Below are positions 3,549 through 61,182 of a stretch of DNA of 64,000 nucleotides, one piece after another. The DNA comes from Candidatus Dojkabacteria bacterium (lineage in GTDB: Bacteria; Patescibacteriota; Dojkabacteria; SC72). The notes beneath the pieces are model-generated. The model did not search any database, was not told where the DNA came from, and saw only the letters and a list, made by a program, of their open reading frames with translations. Each line of letters opens with the position of its first letter. Position 1 is the first letter of the stretch. The stretch covers positions 28,964-92,963 of the forward strand of contig DATERJ010000012.1 in NCBI GenBank assembly GCA_035271645.1, in the 5' to 3' direction. A program made the translations under genes and the position numbers.

Positions 3549-3950
3549 CTATTTCTTAATTAATGACATTATGATAAATGTGATAGTTGCGATTGGTAGG
3601 AGTAGCCAAGTTAGTATGAAGATTATGAAGAGAATCATAGCAAGTAAGTAGAAAGTGATTGCAATTGGTAGGTAGAGTATTTTAATTACAATTCCAAAGA
3701 TAAGGCCGAAGATAGTTCTGTCTCTGTGCCATGGGACAAAGAAATTTTTAAAAAGAAGCGAGATTGACAGATTATCATCGATTACGGTTGATAATCTCCC
3801 AAGTACTCTAAGATATCGTGATGGCATTTTTACATACCACCAGTTTAGAAAGTCTTGGATAAAGAAAAGGAAAATCTTGGAATATGAGTCTGTTTTAACA
3901 GTTTGTATTAGTTGTTGTCCGCTGTTATCTACGGTATTTTGTTGTTTCAT
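3549..3950 (-). CDS. small integral membrane protein (3 predicted TM helices), co-oriented and abutting the Clp unfoldase gene
   Basis: 133-aa ORF with hydrophobic segments (GLIFGIVIKILYLPIAITFYLLAMILFIIFILTWLLLPIATITFIIM). Its stop lies 2 nt upstream of the Clp start codon. Confidence 0.5.
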   Translation of the reverse strand: MKQQNTVDNSGQQLIQTVKTDSYSKIFLFFIQDFLNWWYVKMPSRYLRVLGRLSTVIDDNLSISLLFKNFFVPWHRDRTIFGLIFGIVIKILYLPIAITFYLLAMILFIIFILTWLLLPIATITFIIMSLIKK

Positions 3951-4062
3951 TTTGGGCAGTTTTTTCTCTACTTACAGTTTATCGCAAGTAGATATCGCCT
4001 GTCAATTTTTTCTTTTATGATAGGAGTTAATGTGGTTTTTATTTGTCTGTTTTTCTTCGGAT

Positions 4063-4497
4063 TTACTCTACCTCGACTACCCCGTTTTCTAAAATAGTGA
4101 CAGTCATGTCATCTTGAACGTAGTTTAAGAACTCGTCTCCCAAAGAATCGATTGTTGGCATACTGTTATCTGTCCATACATCTGCTAAGATAGCTCCTGC
4201 TGCTGCTAGTGAGTCAATGGGTTTGGAAAACAGTAATGCACCAGGACTACAGTTCGTTACCGCTGCATTGTACAAGACCATACCTCCTGTTGTTGAACCA
4301 ATGGTTTGTGGTAAGCATAGGGCAACTCCTACAGTTGATTTGCCATACAGATCTTTGTTGTTTTGATCTGTACAGATATTCTTTCCCTCCTTACAATCTT
4401 TATACGATGCCAATGTATTAAAACCAGTATGTGATACTAAGGCTTTTAGCTTACAAGTACCTGGTACTACAACTCTTCCTTTAAATGTTTTTTTCAT
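4063..4497 (-). CDS. aconitase X (AcnX) small subunit-like swivel-domain protein (DUF126 family)
   Basis: 144 aa. Gly-rich core (TIGSTTGGMVLYNAAVTNCSPGALLFSKPIDSLAAAGAILADV) resembles DUF126. Immediately follows the DUF521-like large-subunit gene. Confidence 0.6.
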   Translation of the reverse strand: MKKTFKGRVVVPGTCKLKALVSHTGFNTLASYKDCKEGKNICTDQNNKDLYGKSTVGVALCLPQTIGSTTGGMVLYNAAVTNCSPGALLFSKPIDSLAAAGAILADVWTDNSMPTIDSLGDEFLNYVQDDMTVTILENGVVEVE

Positions 4498-4509
4498 TTT
4501 TCTTATCTT

Positions 4510-5769
4510 TTATATAATTTGTTCTAAAATCTCATCATCAGAATAATATTTAGATGAAGTATAGGTTCTTAATTTGTTTGAATTTGTAATAACTGGCATT
4601 TTTGCACATAGTGGATTATTCATATACATTAAAGGACATATATAGCTTGTAACTACACCCATCTCTTTTAACTTCTTAGCATTCTCTGTATTCTCAAATT
4701 CTTTCAAAACAGCTGGAGCAGAAGTAAAGACAGTTTTAATTCTAATCTTTTTCTTTCCTTTTGCTTTTAGAGCTTCTTCTAACTTCTCTGTCCAGTCATT
4801 AAGTTGTTTTAGACTCATATGTGGACAGCCCATGAAGCATAGTTTTGGTTTAGCATCAGGATTTTTCCAAATGCATGGATAGCTTTTCTTTACCCTTTCT
4901 AATTCAGCATCATCTACTATGTAGACTTTAGCGTTTTCATTAATCAAGTTTTCTTTTAATTCAACTGCTTCTGGGGTTAGATTTTCAACATGGTATAGTC
5001 CAACTGAGCCATTAGATGCCGTAGCTGCACCGAAGTCTTTTAAGTATGATAATGTGTCTTCATCTAAAGTGGTTCCTAACCATTTATCTAAACCTTTAAT
5101 ATATGGAACATCTTCTAAAACTTTCATCCCTATCGCAGAACCTAGTAGTTGTGCTTCTGGTTTCTTTGTTGTCTTTACTTCAACAATCCAGTTAGCTTTT
5201 CTTCCTTCATCAGTAAGAAGACCAAAGTAAGGGACATAGCCAACGATTGATCCAAACATTTCAATAATGCCAGAGTTACGATTGCATCTTGCTCCCAATA
5301 CAGAGTTTGCATAGTTTACAGCACTTGATTCTGCCCAAGAGAGAATGTCTCCTTTTTCGGGTATGTTACCTACTTCTGGAAGATATGCTGCACAGGTAAA
5401 AGCATCGTCTGAGAGAAGTCCTATCTTTTTAAGTTGATCTTCATATCGCTTTTGTGGTCCATACATGATTTTGAAAACAAGGTCTTGGAGGATATTCTTA
5501 GGTACATTTGGATCTAGTGGTCTAGGGTCTGCTGAGAATTTTTGTTTTGACTCAACTTCTGCATCAAGAAGTACATCCATTAAGTCAAAGACTCCTTTTA
5601 CAACTATGACTCCAAAACTAGTTACAATATGTCCGTATTTGCTAGTAACAGGAACCATTTTAGTAGCACCAAAGGTTTCTCCGTACATGACTAATGTCTT
5701 CATTATCTTAGCCATTACTTCACCTTGCTGACCATCTAAAATTGCTTGTTGTTCTTTTGTTAATTCCAT
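4510..5769 (-). CDS. aconitase X (AcnX) large/catalytic subunit-like protein (DUF521 family hydro-lyase)
   Basis: 419 aa. N-terminus MELTKEQQAILDGQQGEVMAKIMKTLVMYGE matches the DUF521 start pattern. Several conserved Cys/Ser positions. Paired with the small-subunit gene. Confidence 0.65.
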   Translation of the reverse strand: MELTKEQQAILDGQQGEVMAKIMKTLVMYGETFGATKMVPVTSKYGHIVTSFGVIVVKGVFDLMDVLLDAEVESKQKFSADPRPLDPNVPKNILQDLVFKIMYGPQKRYEDQLKKIGLLSDDAFTCAAYLPEVGNIPEKGDILSWAESSAVNYANSVLGARCNRNSGIIEMFGSIVGYVPYFGLLTDEGRKANWIVEVKTTKKPEAQLLGSAIGMKVLEDVPYIKGLDKWLGTTLDEDTLSYLKDFGAATASNGSVGLYHVENLTPEAVELKENLINENAKVYIVDDAELERVKKSYPCIWKNPDAKPKLCFMGCPHMSLKQLNDWTEKLEEALKAKGKKKIRIKTVFTSAPAVLKEFENTENAKKLKEMGVVTSYICPLMYMNNPLCAKMPVITNSNKLRTYTSSKYYSDDEILEQII

Positions 5770-5781
5770 ATATTTGTTTTA

Positions 5782-7842
5782 CTAAATTTTCATTCCAACA
5801 TCCCACGCTCTCCATGTGACTGTTCTTAAGTTACCAACCTCATTGCAATCACCTACGAGATGGACTTTTCGATTTGTTTCAGGGATTGTTTTTGGATTGT
5901 AGCCTACTGACATAATGACAGTATCTGCTTCTATGAATATTTCTTCTCCATCTTTGTTCATTATCTTAACTCCATCCTTTGTAATCTCTTGAACAGCAGA
6001 TTCTAAGTGAACCTCAACATTATTTAGTGCAAAGAACTCTCTGAGATATGAACTGTTTGCTAAACAAACTCCTCTTACAGCTATTAAATCATTCCTTGCT
6101 TCAACGATAATAGGTATTTTTCCTTTTTGGTATAGGTCTAATGCAATCTCACAACCGGTTAAACCTCCACCAATGATTATAACTTTTTCACCAGCTTTGG
6201 AGTTGTCTTTCAAATAGTCACATGCTTCAATTGTATTCTCAATTCCTTTTATCTTTAATCTCTTTGGTGTTGCCCCTATTGCAACAATTACTTCATCTGC
6301 ATCTATTTCATCAATATTAGTCACTTCCGTATTAAACTTAATTTCAATTTGTAAATCTTGCATCTCTTTTTCGTACCAATCAAGCAAGGCTCTCTCTTTA
6401 TCTTTAAAACCAGGTGTTGAAGCATATTTAAATACTCCTCCTACCCTATCACTTTTTTCATAAATTGTTGCCTTGTGTCCTCGTAGTGTTAAGAGTCTTG
6501 CAACTTCCATTCCCCCTATTCCTGCACCAATAACTGCAATGTGTTTAGGATTATTTGTTTTTACAATCTTGTATTTCTTAGATTGCATAGTAGTTGGGTT
6601 TAGTGCACATCTAGCCATACCTGCATTATCTGAAAGTGCTTGGTCATTCCCTACTCCTTTGTAGTGAGCCATATTAAAACATGCATTATGACAACCAATA
6701 CATGGCTTTATACTTTCCTCATCACCATTCATGAGTTTAGTAATCCACTCTGGATCAGTGAGGAATTGTCTAGCAACTCCCATTGCATCAATTCTGCCCT
6801 CTTTTATCGATCCTGCTCCTGCTGATGGTGTCATTCTACCTGCACAAACTACTGGAATATCTACATACTTCCTAATCTCTTCAACATCTTTAAGGTTACA
6901 GTTGTAAGGCATATACCCTGGAGGATGAGCCCAGTACCAAGCATCATATGTTCCATTGTCACAATTTAACATGTCATATCCTGCATCTTGTAGATATTTT
7001 GCAGCACGTTTTGATTCCTCCATATCTCTTCCTACTTCAGTATATTCTTCACCTGGGAGTGCTCCTTGTCCGAATCCTTTTGTCTTAGAAACGACCGAAT
7101 ATCTGAGTGATACTGGAAAATCTTTTCCACACTCTTTTTTAATTGCTTGCACTATTTCAATAGGAAATCTATATCTATTCTCAAATGAACCTCCATACTT
7201 ATCATCTCTAAAGTTTGTATATTTCATTGTAAATTGATCAAGAAGATAGCCTTCATGAACAGCATGAATTTCAATACCGTCTACTCCTGCCTCTTGGCAA
7301 AGTTTAGCTGTTTTAGCAAAACCTTCAATTATCTCCTGTATTTCTTCAACTGTCATAGGTCTAGACATTACAGAATCATCCCAACGATTTGGTGTTGCAC
7401 TTGCACTAGCTGTTAGGTAGTCAACATCTAGAACTGGTTTGAGAAGTGTTCCTAAGAATTTGTTGTGATGAGCTTCAATCATTAGGTGGTTAATTGCTAG
7501 ACTTCTTCCAAAACCTGCTGTTAATTGGATGAATAGTTTAGAACCTGTTTTGTGGAATTCATCCATGAACTCTTTAAGTTCTCGGAATTTGCCTTTACCT
7601 TGGTAGAGCCATTTTCCCCAAAGGATATCACGAATTGGAGCAATACCAGGGAGTATTAGTCCTACATTATTCCTTGCTCTTTCTAAAATGAAATTGGCTG
7701 CCTCTTTGTCAAAATGATTACCCAATGGTTCCATCCATCCAAAGAGTGATGTACCACCCATAGATGTCATAACAATCCTGTTTTTGATTTCAAGATTACC
7801 AATCTTCCATGGGGTGAATAGTGGTTTGTACTCTTGTTTCAT
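5782..7842 (-). CDS. Old Yellow Enzyme-family NAD(P)H:flavin oxidoreductase with 4Fe-4S motif and C-terminal FAD/NAD(P)-binding domain (2-enoate reductase / 2,4-dienoyl-CoA reductase-like)
   Basis: 686 aa. N-terminal OYE TIM-barrel features (IKNRIVMTSMG, HAVHEGYLLDQF). Cys cluster CIGCHNACFNMAHY...C. Rossmann motif HIAVIGAGIGGMEVA and a second IIIGGGLTGCE. Confidence 0.8.
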   Translation of the reverse strand: MKQEYKPLFTPWKIGNLEIKNRIVMTSMGGTSLFGWMEPLGNHFDKEAANFILERARNNVGLILPGIAPIRDILWGKWLYQGKGKFRELKEFMDEFHKTGSKLFIQLTAGFGRSLAINHLMIEAHHNKFLGTLLKPVLDVDYLTASASATPNRWDDSVMSRPMTVEEIQEIIEGFAKTAKLCQEAGVDGIEIHAVHEGYLLDQFTMKYTNFRDDKYGGSFENRYRFPIEIVQAIKKECGKDFPVSLRYSVVSKTKGFGQGALPGEEYTEVGRDMEESKRAAKYLQDAGYDMLNCDNGTYDAWYWAHPPGYMPYNCNLKDVEEIRKYVDIPVVCAGRMTPSAGAGSIKEGRIDAMGVARQFLTDPEWITKLMNGDEESIKPCIGCHNACFNMAHYKGVGNDQALSDNAGMARCALNPTTMQSKKYKIVKTNNPKHIAVIGAGIGGMEVARLLTLRGHKATIYEKSDRVGGVFKYASTPGFKDKERALLDWYEKEMQDLQIEIKFNTEVTNIDEIDADEVIVAIGATPKRLKIKGIENTIEACDYLKDNSKAGEKVIIIGGGLTGCEIALDLYQKGKIPIIVEARNDLIAVRGVCLANSSYLREFFALNNVEVHLESAVQEITKDGVKIMNKDGEEIFIEADTVIMSVGYNPKTIPETNRKVHLVGDCNEVGNLRTVTWRAWDVGMKI

Positions 7843-7938
7843 AAACCTTTCTCCTTTAATTTAGATATGAATTAAAAGATACGATTTGATACTAAATAGT
7901 ACAGAGTTAAGTTGTGGATTGCAAGGAGCTGGCTTTAA

Positions 7939-8118
7939 GGTCTGACCTAGGTCTGTCCCCCAATTTCCACCCCCTTCTGCCTGTCTATCAAGGTTTGTTG
8001 GTTTGGATACTTCTGATGACAGCTTACAAAGTTCATCCGAAATACGACGCTTTGGACTAGGAAACCGTTGTACAAGGAGAGAACCTTTGAACATGGAAGG
8101 TCTGACCTACCCCAGACC
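7939..8118. repeat. hairpin-bounded intergenic repeat element, copy A (about 180 nt; inverted relative to copy C)
   Basis: Termini GGTCTGACCTAGGTCTGTCCCCC ... GGTCTGACCTACCCCAGACC. The reverse complement of the core is about 90% identical over roughly 100 nt to the copy at 61003-61182 (shared ...CGGTTTCCTAGTCCAAAGCG.CGTATTTCGGATGAACTTTGTAAGC...TCCAAACCAACAAACCTTGATAG). Confidence 0.55.
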
Positions 8119-9092: not shown

Positions 9093-9628
9093 TAGTATGT
9101 AGTATGGAATTGACCACAGTTTTAATCATTTCTTTTCTAATTATCTCTTCAGTTGGTACCCTACTCCACTTTACTCATAATTGGATAAAGAGAGGTTTTC
9201 TTTTACACCTGTTCTCTGCACTTAATGAGAGTACTTGGGAGCATATGAAGTTACTTCTTCTTCCTACATTGTTAGCTTCAGTATTCCAGATTTTTGTTTT
9301 TAAAGGTAGGTATGGGAATATGAATAGTGCGATATTGGTGTTGTTGTTAGTAGAACTTTTAGCTATGCCTTTGATATTTGAACCTTTGAGGGTTGTATTT
9401 AAGAAGGTTCATTTTGGGATAACTATTGGGATTTTCTTTGTTAGTATTGCTTTAGGTTTGTTAGCTGAGTATTACATTTTGATTAACAACATTATTGTTT
9501 TTAATGAGGTTGTAGCAGGTATTTTGATTTATATTGTTGTAATTCTTTTTGGAATATTTACTTTCTTTCCACCTAAGTTTTTCCTCTTTAAAGATCCTGT
9601 TACTGGGAGGTATGGGGATATTAGTTAG
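9089..9628 (+). CDS. hypothetical polytopic membrane protein
   Basis: 179 aa with about 5 hydrophobic helices. Start overlaps the dus stop (ATGA). Confidence 0.45.
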   Translation: MIVCSMELTTVLIISFLIISSVGTLLHFTHNWIKRGFLLHLFSALNESTWEHMKLLLLPTLLASVFQIFVFKGRYGNMNSAILVLLLVELLAMPLIFEPLRVVFKKVHFGITIGIFFVSIALGLLAEYYILINNIIVFNEVVAGILIYIVVILFGIFTFFPPKFFLFKDPVTGRYGDIS

Positions 9629-10745
9629 TAATTTTCTTGTTCTGTTGTAACTTCTTTACAAAATAGCATGCTAGGTATGTTGTAATTGGTACTGCTAAGA
9701 TTAGTCCAATACTTCCTACCAATGTTCTTACTATCTCTGTAGATACTACCTCCAGACTAATTACTTCACTAAAAGTTCTATCATCACTTAGAAAGAGAAG
9801 AAGGAGAGGCATAGATGCACCTGCATATACTAAGATTAATGTGTTAATCATAGATGCAATATGGTCTCTTCCAAGTTCAAGAGATCTTTTGAAAAGTTCT
9901 TTTGTTGATATATCTTTCTTAAGGTCATAGAGTTGGTGAACTATTGATGTTTGAGAGATTGTAATATCATCCATAATACCTAGTGTACCTATGAGTATTC
10001 CTGCAAGAAGGAGTCCTTTAAGATTGTATGTTGTATTATTCATACCTTGTAAGAAGAGTACCTCTTCAGATTCTGCTCCACTTAGATGTACTAGGTTACT
10101 GAAGATAACGGAGAGTATTCCTGTTATGATTAGTGCAATAATTGTACCTACTATTGCAATTGTTGTCTTTTTGTTAAATCCATGTGAGAGGTAGAAAGTT
10201 ATTGGTATGATAATCATGGATGTAAGTATTGTAATTAGTATTGGGTCTTTTCCTTGTTCTATCTGTGGTAAAAGAAATACAAAGATTATGAGGAAGGATA
10301 ATGCCATGGATAGTAGTGAGAGGAATCCCTTTTTTCTTCCTACTAATACTGCTAGTACTGTGAAGATAGCAAAGAGTATACCTAAGCTTTTAGTTCGGAT
10401 GTAATCTACAATGTAATATATTTCATTACCTTCTGCATCTATCATTTGTGATATTAATATTTCATCCCCTACCCTATACTTGTTTGTATGTCCCATGGGT
10501 TGTGTCCCATTCTCAGAGATTATCTCTTCACCTTTCTTATCTCCTTTTGTTACTAATATCTTTATTTTTTGATAGAGTTGTTTTTCTTTTGTTTCTTTGT
10601 GTTCTATTTCTTTTTCTTCAACAATCTCTGTTATCTTTCCATTCATATATTTAATGTTATCTTCTTGTGCAAATATATTACCTTTTGAGAAAAGGAATAT
10701 TGTTATTGTTGTTAGTAGTATTGTTAGGAGGTGTTTTGGTTTCAT
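9621..10745 (-). CDS. YibE/F-family membrane protein
   Basis: 374 aa. Signal/TM, then a soluble N-domain, then a multi-TM C-terminal domain. Composition and length are typical of the YibE/F family. Confidence 0.6.
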   Translation of the reverse strand: MKPKHLLTILLTTITIFLFSKGNIFAQEDNIKYMNGKITEIVEEKEIEHKETKEKQLYQKIKILVTKGDKKGEEIISENGTQPMGHTNKYRVGDEILISQMIDAEGNEIYYIVDYIRTKSLGILFAIFTVLAVLVGRKKGFLSLLSMALSFLIIFVFLLPQIEQGKDPILITILTSMIIIPITFYLSHGFNKKTTIAIVGTIIALIITGILSVIFSNLVHLSGAESEEVLFLQGMNNTTYNLKGLLLAGILIGTLGIMDDITISQTSIVHQLYDLKKDISTKELFKRSLELGRDHIASMINTLILVYAGASMPLLLLFLSDDRTFSEVISLEVVSTEIVRTLVGSIGLILAVPITTYLACYFVKKLQQNKKITN

Positions 10746-10795
10746 TTAGTAAGTTTAGTAGTTTAATTGTTTCATTATATCTCTATGTTATGGCA

Positions 10796-10828
10796 AAAGA
10801 CAGCCAGTATATTAAACTGACTGTCTTT
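10796..10828 (-). terminator. hairpin (12-bp stem AAAGACAGCCAG/CTGACTGTCTTT, 9-nt loop) downstream of the 10877-11212 gene; candidate intrinsic terminator
   Basis: Stem-loop read directly. Only a short U-run (TTTTGCC) follows on the minus strand. Confidence 0.3.
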
Positions 10829-14284: not shown

Positions 14285-14361
14285 TGGTGGGCGATACAGG
14301 AATTGAACCTGTGACCTTCACAATGTCAATGTGACGCTCTAGCCAGCTGAGCTAATCGCCC
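14285..14361 (-). tRNA. tRNA-Val (anticodon GAC), CCA encoded
   Basis: Minus-strand sequence GGGCGATTAGCTCAGCTGGCTAGAGCGTCACATTGACATTGTGAAGGTCACAGGTTCAATTCCTGTATCGCCCACCA. 7-bp acceptor, D arm GCTC/GAGC, anticodon loop TTGACAT, T arm ACAGG/CCTGT with TTCAATT loop. Confidence 0.85.
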
Positions 14362-28397: not shown

Positions 28398-30867
28398 CTT
28401 TAGCATCAAACACTCTTTCAAAATCCTTTATAACCTTCTCTGAAATCTTCTTAATATCCTTGTCACTAGCAGTTCTGTCATATTTGCTAGCAATTACTCT
28501 TAATGTTGTTCTTTTAACATTTTTCATATTAGGGCTCTTGTAAATATCAATACACTCTACCCTAGCCCAACTCTCTTTGTCATTAAGAATTCTCTCCAAT
28601 TCTGAAATCATACTTTGACATCCAATCTCATCTTTTGTCTCAAAACTAAAATCTAAGGAGAAAGTGGGATAAATAGGAACCTCAAGATACTGGTTTCTCT
28701 TTACATCTAGCTCAAGAAGTCTGTTAAGGTTAATATCGATACCACAACTGTAATCAGAAAGTTTAAACTCTTCTTTAACACTTTTTGTAAATTCACCTAC
28801 TATACCAATTGCAGTACCATTTATGAAGCATATAGCTGAAGTATTAGGGTCAAACATAGGAAGTATTACTTTAACATCCTCTGGTAAATCTTGTTCTAAT
28901 GAATCTGCTATTAATACATAATTACATTTATCTGTGTTTAGAACCTTTTCCAAATATTTCTTACCCCAATAGTATGCAGAGCCAGAATCTTGTATATTGT
29001 TTTTGTTAAGAATACATGAAAGATGCCAATCTTCTTTTGGTAGAGAGTTCTCATCAACATATCCCTTTATATGTGGAATATTAAGTTCAAATAGTCCAAA
29101 CTCTTCAAACCCTCTTTGAATATTCTCTTTACACTTGGAAAGAATACTTTGTAGTAATGAAGTCCTCATGAATTTTAATTCTGGAGAGATTGCATTCTTA
29201 ACCACAAAAGCCCTGTCTAAATCTAAGTTGCTTTTCTGAAAATTGGATTCACTAGTAAAACTGTATGTTAGGATCTCGTTTGCACCTAAGTCAGAGAGAG
29301 TTTTCCTAATCTCTTTCTTCAAATTAAATATCTTGTTATCTTTAAGTGGTGTAATATCTTTGTGGGGCAACCTAATATCAATATTATTGTAGCCATGGAT
29401 TCTTGCTACATCTTCATAGATGTCCTCTTCTATTGCAACATCTCTTCTCCAACTTGGAACAATAACGGTGAGGAAGCCATCTCCTTTTGACTTGACTCTA
29501 TACTCTAGTGAGAGAAGGAGTTTTTCTACTTCTTCTTTCTTAAGATTAAGTCCTACCTTTATGTTTAATCTCTCGATATTTATTGTTATTAGTTGTTCTT
29601 GGTAGGGTTCTTCATATATATCAATAACTTCGGAAGCAACTTTACCACCAGTTATCTCTTTTGTAAGTTCTACTGCTTTTAGGAGTGCAGGTATACATGC
29701 TTCGGTATCTAATGAGTGTTTGTACTTTGTAGCAGCATCTGTATTTAGACCTAAATCCATTGAGGTTCTCCTTATACTATTCTTGTCAAAATTTGCTGAT
29801 TCGAAAACAACTCTCTTTGTATTCTCATCAACACTAGTATCCCTACCACCCATAACTCCAGCAATGGCAATTGGGTTTGTATTATCGGCAATTACCATAA
29901 CTCGATCGTTTAACTCATGAATCTTGTTGTCTAATCCAAGAATCTTCTCGTTATCTCTTGCCATTCGAACATTGATAGTAATCTTGTTGTTAGCTGCAGG
30001 GTCTGTGTTAATAATTTTGTCATAATCAAATGCATGAAGAGGTTGTCCAAAGAGGGCTGAGACATAGTTTGTAATATCAACAATACTGTTTGTTGGTTTA
30101 ACATCAAGTCTAAGAAGAGCTGATTTGAGCCATGTTGGAGATTCTCCATTAGTAATATTGTCCATAGCTATTGCTGTATATCTAGGACAGAGTGCTTCTG
30201 CATCATTTACAACATCAAGACTCAAACAGTTCTGTTCTGGTTTAATATTCTTTTTCTGGTTTCTGTACCATGCTGGACTTTCAAACCTCTCACCTGTAAT
30301 TGCAACTAGTTCTCTCGCCATTCCTACTAGACCGAAAAGGTCTCCTCTGTTTGTCAATGCCTTGTTCTCAACACTAACTACAAAGTCATTGAAAGAGTAG
30401 TATTCAGCAAAAGGTGTTCCGGGTATTGCATCAGAAGGAAGTCGCATAACATGGTCATGGTTTGGTCCAATGTTTAGTTCCTTCTCTGACCCTAGCATTC
30501 CATTGGAATCAACCCCTCTTAATTTGATAGCTTTGATTACGAAGGGTTCTTCTTCGTAGATAGAGTACGGGACAATGGAGTTTGGTTTGATGTACGCCAC
30601 CTTATCCCCTATCTCTAGTGTTTTATCTCCTGCAACTACTTGGTGTCTTGTTTCCTCACCTGTAAATACTTTGTATACTCCTAATTTGTCTGCATCTGGA
30701 TGATCTTTTTTCTCAACAATTTCAGCTACAACAATACCTTCATACTCTTTAGAAATATCATGAGAGTATTCTACATTCCCAATATGTGTATTTATCAAAT
30801 CAACAATATCTTCATTCGATATATTGATATCACTAATTGTTTTTAATAGTTCAGTAGTATATCTCAT
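28390..30867 (-). CDS. pheT: phenylalanine--tRNA ligase beta subunit
   Basis: 825 aa. Immediately downstream of pheS with overlapping stop/start. B3/4 and B5 domain-like regions. C-terminal FDX-ACB-like domain. Confidence 0.85.
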   Translation of the reverse strand: MRYTTELLKTISDINISNEDIVDLINTHIGNVEYSHDISKEYEGIVVAEIVEKKDHPDADKLGVYKVFTGEETRHQVVAGDKTLEIGDKVAYIKPNSIVPYSIYEEEPFVIKAIKLRGVDSNGMLGSEKELNIGPNHDHVMRLPSDAIPGTPFAEYYSFNDFVVSVENKALTNRGDLFGLVGMARELVAITGERFESPAWYRNQKKNIKPEQNCLSLDVVNDAEALCPRYTAIAMDNITNGESPTWLKSALLRLDVKPTNSIVDITNYVSALFGQPLHAFDYDKIINTDPAANNKITINVRMARDNEKILGLDNKIHELNDRVMVIADNTNPIAIAGVMGGRDTSVDENTKRVVFESANFDKNSIRRTSMDLGLNTDAATKYKHSLDTEACIPALLKAVELTKEITGGKVASEVIDIYEEPYQEQLITINIERLNIKVGLNLKKEEVEKLLLSLEYRVKSKGDGFLTVIVPSWRRDVAIEEDIYEDVARIHGYNNIDIRLPHKDITPLKDNKIFNLKKEIRKTLSDLGANEILTYSFTSESNFQKSNLDLDRAFVVKNAISPELKFMRTSLLQSILSKCKENIQRGFEEFGLFELNIPHIKGYVDENSLPKEDWHLSCILNKNNIQDSGSAYYWGKKYLEKVLNTDKCNYVLIADSLEQDLPEDVKVILPMFDPNTSAICFINGTAIGIVGEFTKSVKEEFKLSDYSCGIDINLNRLLELDVKRNQYLEVPIYPTFSLDFSFETKDEIGCQSMISELERILNDKESWARVECIDIYKSPNMKNVKRTTLRVIASKYDRTASDKDIKKISEKVIKDFERVFDAKVI

Positions 30868-52462: not shown

Positions 52463-52630
52463 GGTCTGGTCTGGGTCAGACCTTATACATTTTACGAAAA
52501 GCGTTGTCGCACGACCATTTGGAAGGAAAGCCAGTCCAAACCGAGAAATCGTACCCAACAAGTTAATCAGGAGAAAGCGGTTGTTTTCCTGTCATAAAAG
52601 GATATTACTAAGTCAGACCTAGGTCAGACC
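52463..52630. repeat. hairpin-bounded intergenic repeat element, copy B (same termini, divergent core)
   Basis: Termini GGTCTGGTCTGGGTCAGACC ... GTCAGACCTAGGTCAGACC. The 128-nt core shares only a short block (GTCCAAACC...) with copies A and C. Confidence 0.45.
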
Positions 52631-52640
52631 TGTTGAGAGT

Positions 52641-60807: not shown

Positions 60808-61002
60808 GTTTTGACTATATCATATTTCACCACTTTCTACCACTTCTTGCCACTAATATAGCTTGGGGGGCTTGGGGTGTCAAGAGAAAAACATTACAGG
60901 CTCGAATATAACACTCTGGGCCACATACTTCTCTAAAAGTAAAGCCATTTTCTATATGTGTGCTCTCCCTATTGTCATCTCCTCTGGAACCGATAGGTTT
61001 TA

Positions 61003-61182
61003 GGTCTGACCTAGGTTAGACCTTCGATTTCCTTCGGTTTTCGCATTGTACAATCGTTTCCTAGTCCAAAGCGCCGTATTTCGGATGAACTTTGTAAGCC
61101 GAAATCAGAAGTGTCCAAACCAACAAACCTTGATAGGTAGGTAGATAGGTATGGAAAACAGGGGACAGATCTGGGACAGACC
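61003..61182. repeat. hairpin-bounded intergenic repeat element, copy C (about 180 nt)
   Basis: Termini GGTCTGACCTAGGTTAGACC ... GGGGACAGATCTGGGACAGACCC. The core is near-identical to the reverse complement of copy A. Confidence 0.55.

Follow-up and report, generated by a model that had tools for sequence, protein, structure and literature searches.

The 64,000-nucleotide stretch of DNA analysed here (the window; positions 28,964 to 92,963 of contig DATERJ010000012.1) comes from a Candidatus Dojkabacteria bacterium and contains a three-gene cassette that codes for an Old Yellow Enzyme (OYE)-type flavoenzyme and the two subunits of an aconitase X (AcnX)-type hydro-lyase. Read jointly, the evidence favours, with a probability that we put at about 0.55, a self-contained operon of Clostridial origin that is spreading among Dojkabacteria at one fixed site and serves to dehydroxylate a free beta-hydroxy carboxylic acid reductively, in two steps and independently of CoA. 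The AcnX pair keeps the residues for binding a carboxylate and a 3-hydroxyl group and for deprotonating C2, and the flavoenzyme keeps the set needed for the reduction of a conjugated C=C bond. The simplest reading is therefore the conversion of a beta-hydroxy acid to a 2-enoate and then to the saturated acid. The three genes, each of which starts with ATG, are the following.

5782..7842, minus strand: OYE gene (686 amino acids, aa)
4510..5769, minus strand: AcnX large-subunit gene (AcnX-L, 419 aa)
4063..4497, minus strand: AcnX small (swivel, domain-4) subunit gene (AcnX-S, 144 aa)

The two intergenic gaps (5770-5781 and 4498-4509) measure 12 nt each, and these coordinates agree exactly with a preliminary description of this DNA that had listed three same-strand genes with 12-nt gaps. 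The same description had placed the genes in a reduced-genome bacterium, which is borne out by identical and near-identical proteins that carry the name Candidatus Dojkabacteria bacterium, a member of the Candidate Phyla Radiation (CPR), and whose longest contigs reach about 750-763 kb.

The AcnX pair

The 419-aa protein matches the Pfam family AcnX (PF04412) with 308.8 bits (cutoff 31.5; E 6.2e-92) over positions 1-386 of the 400 in the profile, and the 144-aa protein matches the AcnX swivel family (PF01989; E 5.5e-13; 49 bits against a cutoff of 27). These hidden Markov model matches place the pair firmly in AcnX, as had been proposed under the names DUF521 for the large and DUF126 for the small subunit. 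The best solved relatives are the two chains of the mevalonate-5-phosphate dehydratase of Thermococcus kodakarensis (TkAcnX), 7cnr_A for the large subunit (E 4.7e-42) and 7cnr_B (TK1248) for the small subunit (E 1.5e-7). Residues were mapped through alignments to solved relatives and with the help of a structural paper (PMC8184944). The correspondences are given below in the order window protein, TkAcnX, and AtAcnX (a cis-3-hydroxyproline dehydratase).

Cluster ligand: C126; Cys110; Cys273
Cluster ligand: C315; Cys283; none given
Cluster ligand: C378; Cys342; Cys508
Carboxylate and 3-OH binding: E147-S148-S149; Glu129-Ser130-Ser131; E292, S293
Carboxylate and 3-OH binding: K399, Y403; Lys361, Tyr365; Lys530, Tyr534
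General base, small subunit: S68; Ser62; Ser70
Carboxylate binding, small subunit: T69; Thr63; none given

The ligand and binding motifs of the large subunit are invariant in 78 relatives. The small-subunit motif G67-S68-T69-T70-G71, which aligns to G-S62-T63-V64-G of TkAcnX, is likewise invariant in 70 small subunits. The retained residues are those that recognise the carboxylate, the C3-hydroxyl group, and the C1-C3 backbone in both TkAcnX and AtAcnX (PMC8184944). Hence the pair is predicted to act as a dehydratase and probably binds an Fe-S cluster.

The residues that set the two characterised functions apart have changed. The phosphate loop of TkAcnX (G48-V49-S50, Asn53) carries an insertion of about six residues in the window protein (GHIVTSFGVIVVKG; signature YGHIVTSFG). 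Asn53 is replaced by Gly, and Asn79 of TkAcnX corresponds to an invariant Asp86. Asp203 of AtAcnX is an invariant Val49 in the window large subunit, and among the landmarks of cis-3-hydroxy-L-proline (C3LHyp) dehydratases (Asp203, Thr72, Trp35, and Ile206) only the equivalent of Thr72 is present, as T70. Against the NCBIfam model of C3LHyp dehydratase (NF051439, cutoff 700) the large subunit reaches 140.5 bits and the small one 27.7. Two identities were rejected on these grounds: that of a mevalonate-5-phosphate dehydratase by the landmark residues together with the gene context, and that of a cis-3-hydroxyproline dehydratase by the change from Asp203 to Val, the set of cluster ligands, and the NCBIfam score. 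Mevalonate-5-phosphate and hydroxyproline, both named earlier as candidate substrates, are thus disfavoured by the landmark residues.

The landmark residues of the known functions are missing from Type-II AcnX proteins of the subclasses IIc-IIf, which are still uncharacterised (Watanabe et al. 2021, PMC8184944). Since the landmarks of both characterised functions are missing here, the window pair belongs, as far as its residues tell, to an uncharacterised Type-II subclass and fits the description of IIc-IIf. In a library clustered at 50% identity the clade corresponds essentially to a single full-length cluster; the next relatives share 40-47% identity, differ in the YGHIVTSFG loop, and keep the catalytic core. 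The clade is accordingly a separate group of orthologues, which would have a specificity of its own. In the specificity region there are a conserved Arg/Lys83 and His47, and together with Asp86 they would be compatible with a distal charged group on the substrate, as in hydroxy-di- or tricarboxylates or carnitine-like compounds.

The OYE-type flavoenzyme

The 686-aa protein matches PF00724 (Oxidored_FMN; E 1.8e-54) over residues 8-373, and its C-terminal part matches PF07992 (Pyr_redox_2; E 2.2e-34). From the N to the C terminus it consists of an FMN-binding TIM barrel, a [4Fe-4S] motif, and an FAD/NAD(P)H domain. Among solved structures, 2-naphthoyl-CoA reductase (6qkg, E 3.6e-59) is the best match, followed by the 2,4-dienoyl-CoA reductase of E. 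coli (FadH, 1ps9, E 1.4e-55). In an alignment of 12 orthologues with 61-92% identity, the active-site stretch H193-A-V-H196-E-G-Y199-L-L-D-Q-F is invariant, and so are two GxGxxG motifs, E581, and the four cysteines of C381-I-G-C384-H-N-A-C388...C412 (C-x2-C-x3-C...C), a motif that aligns to CIGCNQAC...C of FadH. The E-G-Y with Y199 is aligned with the E-G-Y of FadH that holds Tyr166, the equivalent of Tyr196 in OYE1. E581 stands at the end of the second Rossmann beta-strand, which suggests a preference for NADH over NADPH.

An active-site Tyr is typical of alkene-reducing members of the 2-enoate reductase (2-ER) subfamily, while a His is found in the amine-dehydrogenase cluster (PMC11759058). 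With Y199, four canonical cysteines, and no amine-dehydrogenase-type His, the window protein therefore looks like a C=C reductase and not like an amine dehydrogenase of the trimethylamine dehydrogenase type; its domains, cysteines, and Tyr place it in the 2-ER subfamily. Clostridial 2-ER members such as FldZ perform an NADH-dependent reduction of free 2-enoates and are oxygen-sensitive (PMC5882074). The preliminary description of an OYE of the enoate-reductase class with a Cys cluster and an FAD/NAD(P) domain is therefore correct, as both domains, the four cysteines, and the Tyr of the active site are present. Across both enzymes, the catalytic residues that were checked (the AcnX cluster ligands and catalytic Ser, the OYE Tyr, and its four cysteines) are all present.

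Two named reductases were also considered as identities. The protein reaches 345.5 bits on the NCBIfam model of BaiCD (cutoff 825) and 351.5 bits on that of BilR (bilirubin reductase-long; cutoff 750), and since both scores fall far under the equivalog cutoffs it is neither BaiCD nor BilR.

Conservation of the OYE-AcnX pairing

The pairing was surveyed from both sides. For AcnX, one genome per species was scanned in a collection of 185,579 species, which returned 80 loci, and AcnX-L was called in 78 of them. Genes were called with a codon-usage score and neighbours were clustered in 80 genome loci and 80 metagenome loci, and batches of neighbours were annotated with Pfam and NCBIfam. An OYE orthologue (59-76% identity) lies directly upstream of AcnX in 43 of the 78 reference-genome loci, and in six more loci this place is taken by another, larger OYE/Fe-S/FAD protein of 753-786 aa with 27-29% identity, so that any OYE-type gene precedes AcnX in 49 loci. 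AcnX-S adjoins AcnX-L in 69 of the 78. As for the other loci, 14 of the Acutalibacteraceae type have no OYE and instead show a divergent gene of the dihydrodipicolinate synthase (DHDPS) family 18 nt after AcnX-S, 13 have neither partner, and two start at a contig edge.

For OYE, a metagenome scan with the OYE alignment yielded 69 informative loci. AcnX-L is found immediately downstream of OYE in 31 of these, and in nine more AcnX lies within 5 kb in other arrangements, giving a total of 40 loci and three gene orders. The order AcnXL-AcnXS-OYE occurs in L117-L119, L121, L124, and L170 (and in L120 and L125, which are too short to count), and a convergent arrangement in L141 and L160. The spacing of the linked genes is operon-like (-1 to 35 nt). 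Apart from the three genes the loci have nothing in common, and their flanks hold unrelated housekeeping genes that range from the ATP synthase operon, ribosomal proteins, and an FtsZ/FtsW/MurG cluster to NrdD, Spo0A, and arginine deiminase with ornithine transcarbamylase (OTCase). A cultured carrier, Clostridium sp. Cult3 (L081; NZ_PPXY01000001), has the genes TetR, OYE-like, AcnX-L, AcnX-S, a second OYE, and an iron-containing alcohol dehydrogenase.

Since the trio is found again and again in dozens of otherwise unrelated genomic settings, chance can hardly explain the arrangement. The pairing, which the preliminary description had singled out, is hence conserved (49/78 reference loci and 40/69 metagenome loci). 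Because it survives changes of gene order, genomic background, and OYE subfamily with operon-like spacing, we regard the linkage as functional but facultative; the coupling itself is inferred from gene context.

Two further gene arrangements were observed during the survey. The Acutalibacteraceae-type block (L057-L075; for example L072, 4229..12639) consists of a GH95 fucosidase, O-acetylhomoserine sulfhydrylase, homoserine O-acyltransferase, GH25 lysozyme, AcnX-L, AcnX-S, and the DHDPS-family protein. Its AcnX-DHDPS pair, with the 18-nt gap, makes the DHDPS-family protein a second candidate partner of this dehydratase. In the metagenome loci L128, L142, L146, and L171, OYE orthologues (60-66% identity) lie 7-22 nt downstream of a conserved set composed of two HGD-D-family proteins, an acyl-CoA-dehydratase-type activase (BcrAD/BadFG), and a 237-aa protein with weak similarity to CdhC. 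Judged by its gene content, this set would encode a so far uncharacterised radical-enzyme system that is activated by ATP and coupled to the reductase clade of the window OYE. The HgdAB/BCR/double-cubane neighbours of these four OYE-only loci were also considered as a swapped dehydratase and given little weight, since NCBIfam cannot separate dehydratases from reductases in this group.

Proposed function and alternative explanations

In the reaction that we favour, the AcnX heterodimer would hold the carboxylate and the 3-hydroxyl group of the substrate through E147, S148, K399, and Y403 of the large subunit and T69 of the small subunit, next to a [4Fe-4S] cluster that is probably bound by C126, C315, and C378. 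Removal of the C2 proton, with S68 as the presumed base, and loss of water would yield a 2-enoate. The FAD domain of OYE would then accept electrons from NADH and relay them via the enzyme's own [4Fe-4S] cluster to FMN. With the enoate carboxylate held by the His193/His196 pair, a hydride would pass from FMN to C-beta and C-alpha would be protonated by Tyr199, delivering the saturated acid. The net conversion would be hydroxy acid + NADH to saturated acid + NAD+ + H2O, a possible electron sink that regenerates NAD+ without CoA activation for a fermenter, including a CPR cell with minimal redox options. The preliminary description had suggested a two-step hydration-reduction module; the coupling of a hydro-lyase to a C=C reductase is supported by the conserved pairing, and the chemistry that makes sense is the dehydration of a beta-hydroxy acid and then the reduction of the 2-enoate, instead of hydration and reduction of one unsaturated acid. 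The sequential action of the two enzymes, the direction of the reaction, and its physiological role are inferred.

A more specific version can be put forward tentatively: the route might turn a beta-hydroxy acid that is common in guts and digesters into the saturated acid as an NADH sink, for example 3-hydroxybutyrate into butyrate, citrate or another hydroxy-di- or tricarboxylate into tricarballylate-type products, or carnitine into gamma-butyrobetaine, having been passed from Clostridia to CPR bacteria and then swept between lineages.

Several observations weigh against a dedicated dehydration-reduction module. The linkage is only facultative, as about 29 of the 69 metagenome OYE orthologues have no AcnX within 5 kb and in 27 of the 78 AcnX loci no OYE-type gene precedes the pair. 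Owing to common ancestry, many of the 43 loci with a linked OYE do not count as independent cases. No conserved transporter, regulator, or pathway partner was found in the 80 genome and 80 metagenome loci, where TetR, LysR, EamA, MFS, MatE, and M20-peptidase genes appear only sporadically and none is diagnostic. Neither 12-nt gap of the window contains a clear ribosome-binding site. Furthermore, the nearest solved OYE relatives act on CoA thioesters, yet AcnX chemistry needs a free carboxylate. Finally, the AcnX active-site motifs in the DHDPS-linked loci are identical to those of the window protein, and this linkage means that the AcnX product could be a 2-oxo or imino acid and not a simple enoate.

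This last point leads to an explanation in which the substrate of AcnX is either a 2-amino-3-hydroxy acid or a 2,3-dihydroxy acid (a sugar or aldonic acid), its dehydrated form tautomerises to a 2-oxo (2-keto-3-deoxy) or 2-imino acid, and OYE works at a later stage, such as on a 2-oxo-3-enoate that arises from a second dehydration, or on another compound. Besides the shared motifs, it draws on the DHDPS-family protein right after AcnX-S in the 14 Acutalibacteraceae loci and in L083, on the membership of 2-keto-3-deoxy-acid aldolases/dehydratases such as KdgD in that family (the NCBIfam matches to DapA and KdgD are weak), and on the imino acid that the characterised AcnX cis-3-hydroxyproline dehydratase yields (PMC5144071). 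However, no DHDPS-family gene occurs in the window or in the 43 OYE-linked loci, the linkage is confined to one family-level synteny block (GH95-MetY-MetA-GH25-AcnX) and may simply be inherited, and a 2-keto-3-deoxy acid offers an ene-reductase no evident task, so we consider this explanation rather unlikely. A small but real chance remains with the view that OYE and AcnX are functionally unrelated and stay neighbours through joint inheritance and transfer as a block. Each enzyme is found without the other in many genomes, one Dojkabacteria lineage (L094) retains OYE alone, and the co-occurrence could largely reflect shared ancestry within Clostridia. Joint inheritance accounts poorly for an association that persists through three gene orders and wholly different flanks, for a second OYE-type subfamily (27-29% identical) in the same position in six loci, for the spacing of -1 to 35 nt, and for the equally strong purifying selection on all three genes in Dojkabacteria (see below).

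The remaining alternatives assign one or both enzymes to known chemistry. Proline salvage, in which AcnX is a 3-hydroxyproline dehydratase and OYE reduces pyrroline-2-carboxylate (2,3-dehydroproline) to proline, would follow the established order of AcnX Type-I/IIa chemistry and a subsequent reductase (PMC5144071); Thr70 of the small subunit matches Thr72 of AtAcnX, which contacts the ring nitrogen, and one Oscillospiraceae locus adjoins arginine deiminase, OTCase, and an ArgZ-like gene. It is improbable all the same, because Asp203, the salt-bridge partner of the ring nitrogen in AtAcnX, is an invariant Val49, the cluster ligands are of the three-Cys IIb and not the IIa type, the NCBIfam C3LHyp model gives 140 bits against a cutoff of 700, and no hydroxyproline genes were seen in about 160 surveyed loci. 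OYE might also be an NADH oxidase, a quinone/flavin reductase, or a redox-protection enzyme and not the reductase of the AcnX product. Some enzymes of this architecture were first described as NADH oxidases, and OYE stands alone in L094 and in about 29 metagenome loci; the complete and invariant His-His-Tyr activating and protonating set and the recurrent linkage to a hydro-lyase, which this view leaves unexplained, make it very improbable. The faintest prospect is that of a bacterial phosphomevalonate dehydratase of the archaeal-type mevalonate pathway. TkAcnX is indeed the closest solved relative and has the three-Cys ligand set in common with the window protein, but the insertion of about six residues in the phosphate loop and the replacement of Asn53 by Gly and of Asn79 by Asp86 are hard to reconcile with it. 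Moreover, no mevalonate kinase, UbiD/UbiX-type decarboxylase, or isopentenyl phosphate kinase was found among the annotated neighbours of the surveyed loci (whole genomes were not searched), and the cassette is dispensable, being missing from sister lineages within Dojkabacteria.

Clostridial origin of the cassette

All three window proteins share 71-86% identity with their counterparts in Clostridial cassettes, where the gene order is the same. Of the 80 related loci from the genome collection, just 2 belong to Dojkabacteria; the others come mostly from Christensenellaceae, Oscillospiraceae, Acutalibacteraceae, and Ruminococcus, with a few from Erysipelotrichaceae, Anaeroplasmataceae, Coriobacteriales, and Spirochaetia. 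In a neighbour-joining tree the Dojkabacteria sequences form one tight clade nested inside the Clostridial diversity. Tree and identities thus show that the cassette was acquired horizontally from Clostridia. Its GC content of 0.35-0.40 (0.24-0.32 at third codon positions), against 0.46-0.51 in most Clostridial copies, has been adjusted to the host, and the cross-phylum transfer is therefore not very recent. What had been described as unusual content for a reduced genome finds its explanation in this acquisition and in the subsequent lateral spread among Dojkabacteria.

Possible carriers were looked for as well. Carriage by a plasmid was rejected, since no close plasmid copy was found; the best match, on a plasmid of Rhodococcus opacus PD630, shares 46.6% identity and has LysR and MFS neighbours and no OYE. 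Carriage by a phage was likewise rejected, since the sole match labelled as phage (L096; MT837347.1, 'Bacteriophage sp.', 7059 bp) is an unverified, unannotated record from human faeces. Its AcnX-L is 69.5% identical to the window protein, and the record is most likely a mislabelled bacterial contig.

Spread within Dojkabacteria

In the window the cassette is flanked upstream by the divergent genes of Dus, DUF6512, and YibE/F (Pfam) and downstream by an open reading frame for a 133-aa membrane protein (orf133), followed by ClpB, L32, and NusB. The equivalent chromosomal site was located in other Dojkabacteria via homologues of the lineage-specific orf133. At this site the synteny of Dus on one side and orf133-ClpB-L32-NusB-RNase III on the other is always kept, and three states were found.

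Full site (whole cassette): window, L012, L013/L092/L178
OYE-only site: L094
Empty site: L093, L177, L179

In a ClpB tree the closest relative of the window, L093 (ClpB 85% identical), is empty, and so is L179 (ClpB 86%), the sister of the OYE-only lineage L094. OYE is 92-98% and AcnX-L 98-99% identical between lineages whose ClpB proteins share only 68-73%, and the sliding-window nucleotide identity amounts to 91-98% in the cassette against 57-77% on the ClpB side. As the identity of the cassette by far exceeds that of ClpB, vertical inheritance with losses cannot explain the pattern. The cassette was passed from lineage to lineage within Dojkabacteria and inserted at the homologous site. The ratio of nonsynonymous to synonymous substitution rates (dN/dS) in Dojkabacteria is 0.03-0.08 for all three genes, at dS values of 0.12-0.55, and the genes are therefore functional and constrained. 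The OYE-only allele fits a reductase that is useful alone, with AcnX widening the accepted range.

The non-coding features of the variable locus are the following.

7896..7924, minus strand: promoter-like element TTGCAA-N17-TACTAT upstream of the OYE gene, within a conserved stretch of about 95 nt
7851..7857, minus strand: Shine-Dalgarno-like AAAGGAG, 8 nt upstream of the OYE start codon, read from the sequence
7938..8108, no strand: insert of about 170 nt in the Dus-OYE spacer with two copies of the palindromic repeat AGGTCTGACCT at its ends
3951..4062, minus strand: spacer between AcnX-S and orf133, which forms the edge of the island on the side of orf133
3976..4005, minus strand: promoter-like site of orf133, TTGACA-N18-TAAACT, inside the region 3951..4062

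About 95 nt before the OYE start codon are conserved in the window, L012, L092, and L094, and the remaining intergenic region differs. This stretch, with the promoter-like element and AAAGGAG, travels with the cassette. TTGCAA-N17-TACTAT matches 8 of the 12 consensus positions, was not flagged by a consensus scanner, and is a putative OYE promoter. At the opposite edge, only the final 45 nt or so of the region 3951..4062 before orf133 can be aligned with the empty site of L093. Between 3400 and 8400 the analysis detected no intrinsic terminator, and AcnX-S is followed by none.

The insert of about 170 nt is missing from the 131-133-nt Dus-OYE spacers of L012, L092, and L094, and it marks the Dus-side edge of the variable locus. 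Its palindromic repeat, AGGTCWGACCT, is present in four exact copies in the window (7938-7948, 8098-8108, 52621-52631, and 61002-61012) against 0.03 expected, with relaxed forms at 1002 and 52474. The copies are intergenic and often tandem. The repeat also occurs at the empty site of L093 (8624 and 8736, inside a tandem duplication of about 112 nt) and in the spacer adjoining the OYE-only allele of L094 (8734 and 8919), and was not found in the loci of L012, L013, and L092. It may be an element resembling repetitive extragenic palindromes (REP) or miniature inverted-repeat transposable elements (MITE) that is involved in gain or loss at the site.

Other observations at the locus

A second mosaic tract is found at the YibE/F gene (9621..10745, minus strand), where high identity extends over about 9900-10800 and, against L012, to about 11700. 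The gene is 94-97% identical at the nucleotide level to its counterparts in L092, L012, and L013; the adjacent Dus/DUF6512 DNA shows 61-88% and the ClpB side 57-77%. Divergent Dojkabacteria therefore recombine outside the cassette as well. Moreover, four independent Logan assemblies (L001, L004, L005, and L006) break at one point in the OYE gene, at about window position 6234 (residue 537), which points to coexisting variants of the strain in these samples or to a breakpoint of recombination.

The orf133 gene itself (3549..3950, minus strand) encodes a 133-aa predicted membrane protein without a Pfam or NCBIfam match. It has 74 homologues, and the few of these with a lineage name are from Dojkabacteria. 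It stands directly upstream of ClpB in 9 of the 9 lineages examined and evolves fast, with 58-74% identity where Dus shows 70-86%. The sole tRNA gene of the 64-kb window, for Val-GAC, lies at 14285..14361 on the minus strand, and no other Rfam family was detected in the window.

Significance

Both enzyme families have been known before; the specificity of the subclass, the pairing, and the transfer into and among CPR bacteria are new. Our literature search returned no paper that links AcnX, DUF521, or DUF126 with an enoate reductase and none that assigns a function to this AcnX clade, and a bioinformatic study of 2-ERs (PMC11759058) does not mention aconitase or dehydratase neighbours. As the consumption of NADH by the OYE partner provides a coupled read-out, the question of the IIc-IIf substrates becomes experimentally tractable.

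The family is abundant, with at least 8000 candidates in a homologue search, and common in gut Clostridia (Christensenellaceae, Oscillospiraceae, and Acutalibacteraceae). In view of this abundance, an unrecognised reductive dehydroxylation could carry real metabolite flux in animal guts and anaerobic digesters. For the CPR, the locus offers a clean case of metabolic gain, in which a genome of about 0.75 Mb obtained a module by cross-phylum transfer with the gene order of the Clostridial cassettes. The full, partial, and empty alleles, the recent spread between lineages, and the strong purifying selection constitute direct evidence of selection on accessory redox metabolism in reduced genomes. 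If our reading is true, a beta-hydroxy-acid-reducing trait was useful enough to cross from Clostridia into ultra-small CPR bacteria and then to sweep between lineages.

Comparison with known systems

Among characterised AcnX enzymes, the mevalonate-5-phosphate dehydratase TkAcnX (TK1249/TK1248 of T. kodakarensis, 7cnr and 7cns; also known from Aeropyrum pernix; Type-IIb) resembles the window pair most. Both consist of a large and a swivel subunit, share the three-Cys ligands (C110/C283/C342 and C126/C315/C378) and the catalytic Ser of the small subunit (S62 and S68), and hold the carboxylate and 3-hydroxyl group with Glu-Ser-Ser, Lys, and Tyr. They differ in that identity is about 35%, the phosphate loop and Asn53/Asn79 are replaced in the window protein, and the window host is bacterial, with no mevalonate-pathway context at the locus and a cassette that is dispensable and mobile. 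The partner is an ene-reductase instead of a UbiD-type decarboxylase. AtAcnX shares the fold and the logic of beta-elimination, and its pathway likewise continues with a reductase, which converts pyrroline-2-carboxylate to proline. However, it is a weak match (E 2.5e-18) with Asp203 in place of Val49 and another set of cluster ligands, and the window pair stays below the NCBIfam cutoff and is not accompanied by a hydroxyproline gene cluster.

On the reductase side, the known 2-ERs and their relatives (FldZ of Clostridium sporogenes; Enr of Clostridium tyrobutyricum and Moorella thermoacetica; FadH, 1ps9; 6qkg; BaiCD/BaiH; BilR) have FMN, [4Fe-4S], and FAD/NADH, the four-Cys motif, and the active-site Tyr in common with the window OYE. 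The known 2-ERs come from anaerobes, are sensitive to oxygen, and reduce C=C bonds in conjugation with a carboxylate or a thioester. The window protein represents a distinct clade (about 350 bits on the BaiCD and BilR models, with cutoffs of 750-825). Its H-A-V-H-E-G-Y stretch is unusual in uniting the classical OYE His pair with the FadH-type E-G-Y, and no characterised 2-ER has been reported beside an AcnX gene.

As analogies for the overall reaction, two systems come to mind: the bile-acid 7-alpha-dehydroxylation with BaiE and BaiCD/BaiH, and the conversion of carnitine via crotonobetaine to gamma-butyrobetaine by CaiD and CaiA. They rely on unrelated dehydratase families, CoA esters, and larger operons with ligases and transferases, whereas the cassette comprises two enzymes only and no CoA-handling gene. 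What both would share with the proposed activity of the cassette is the principle: water is eliminated to create a conjugated C=C bond, whose reduction serves an anaerobe as an electron sink.

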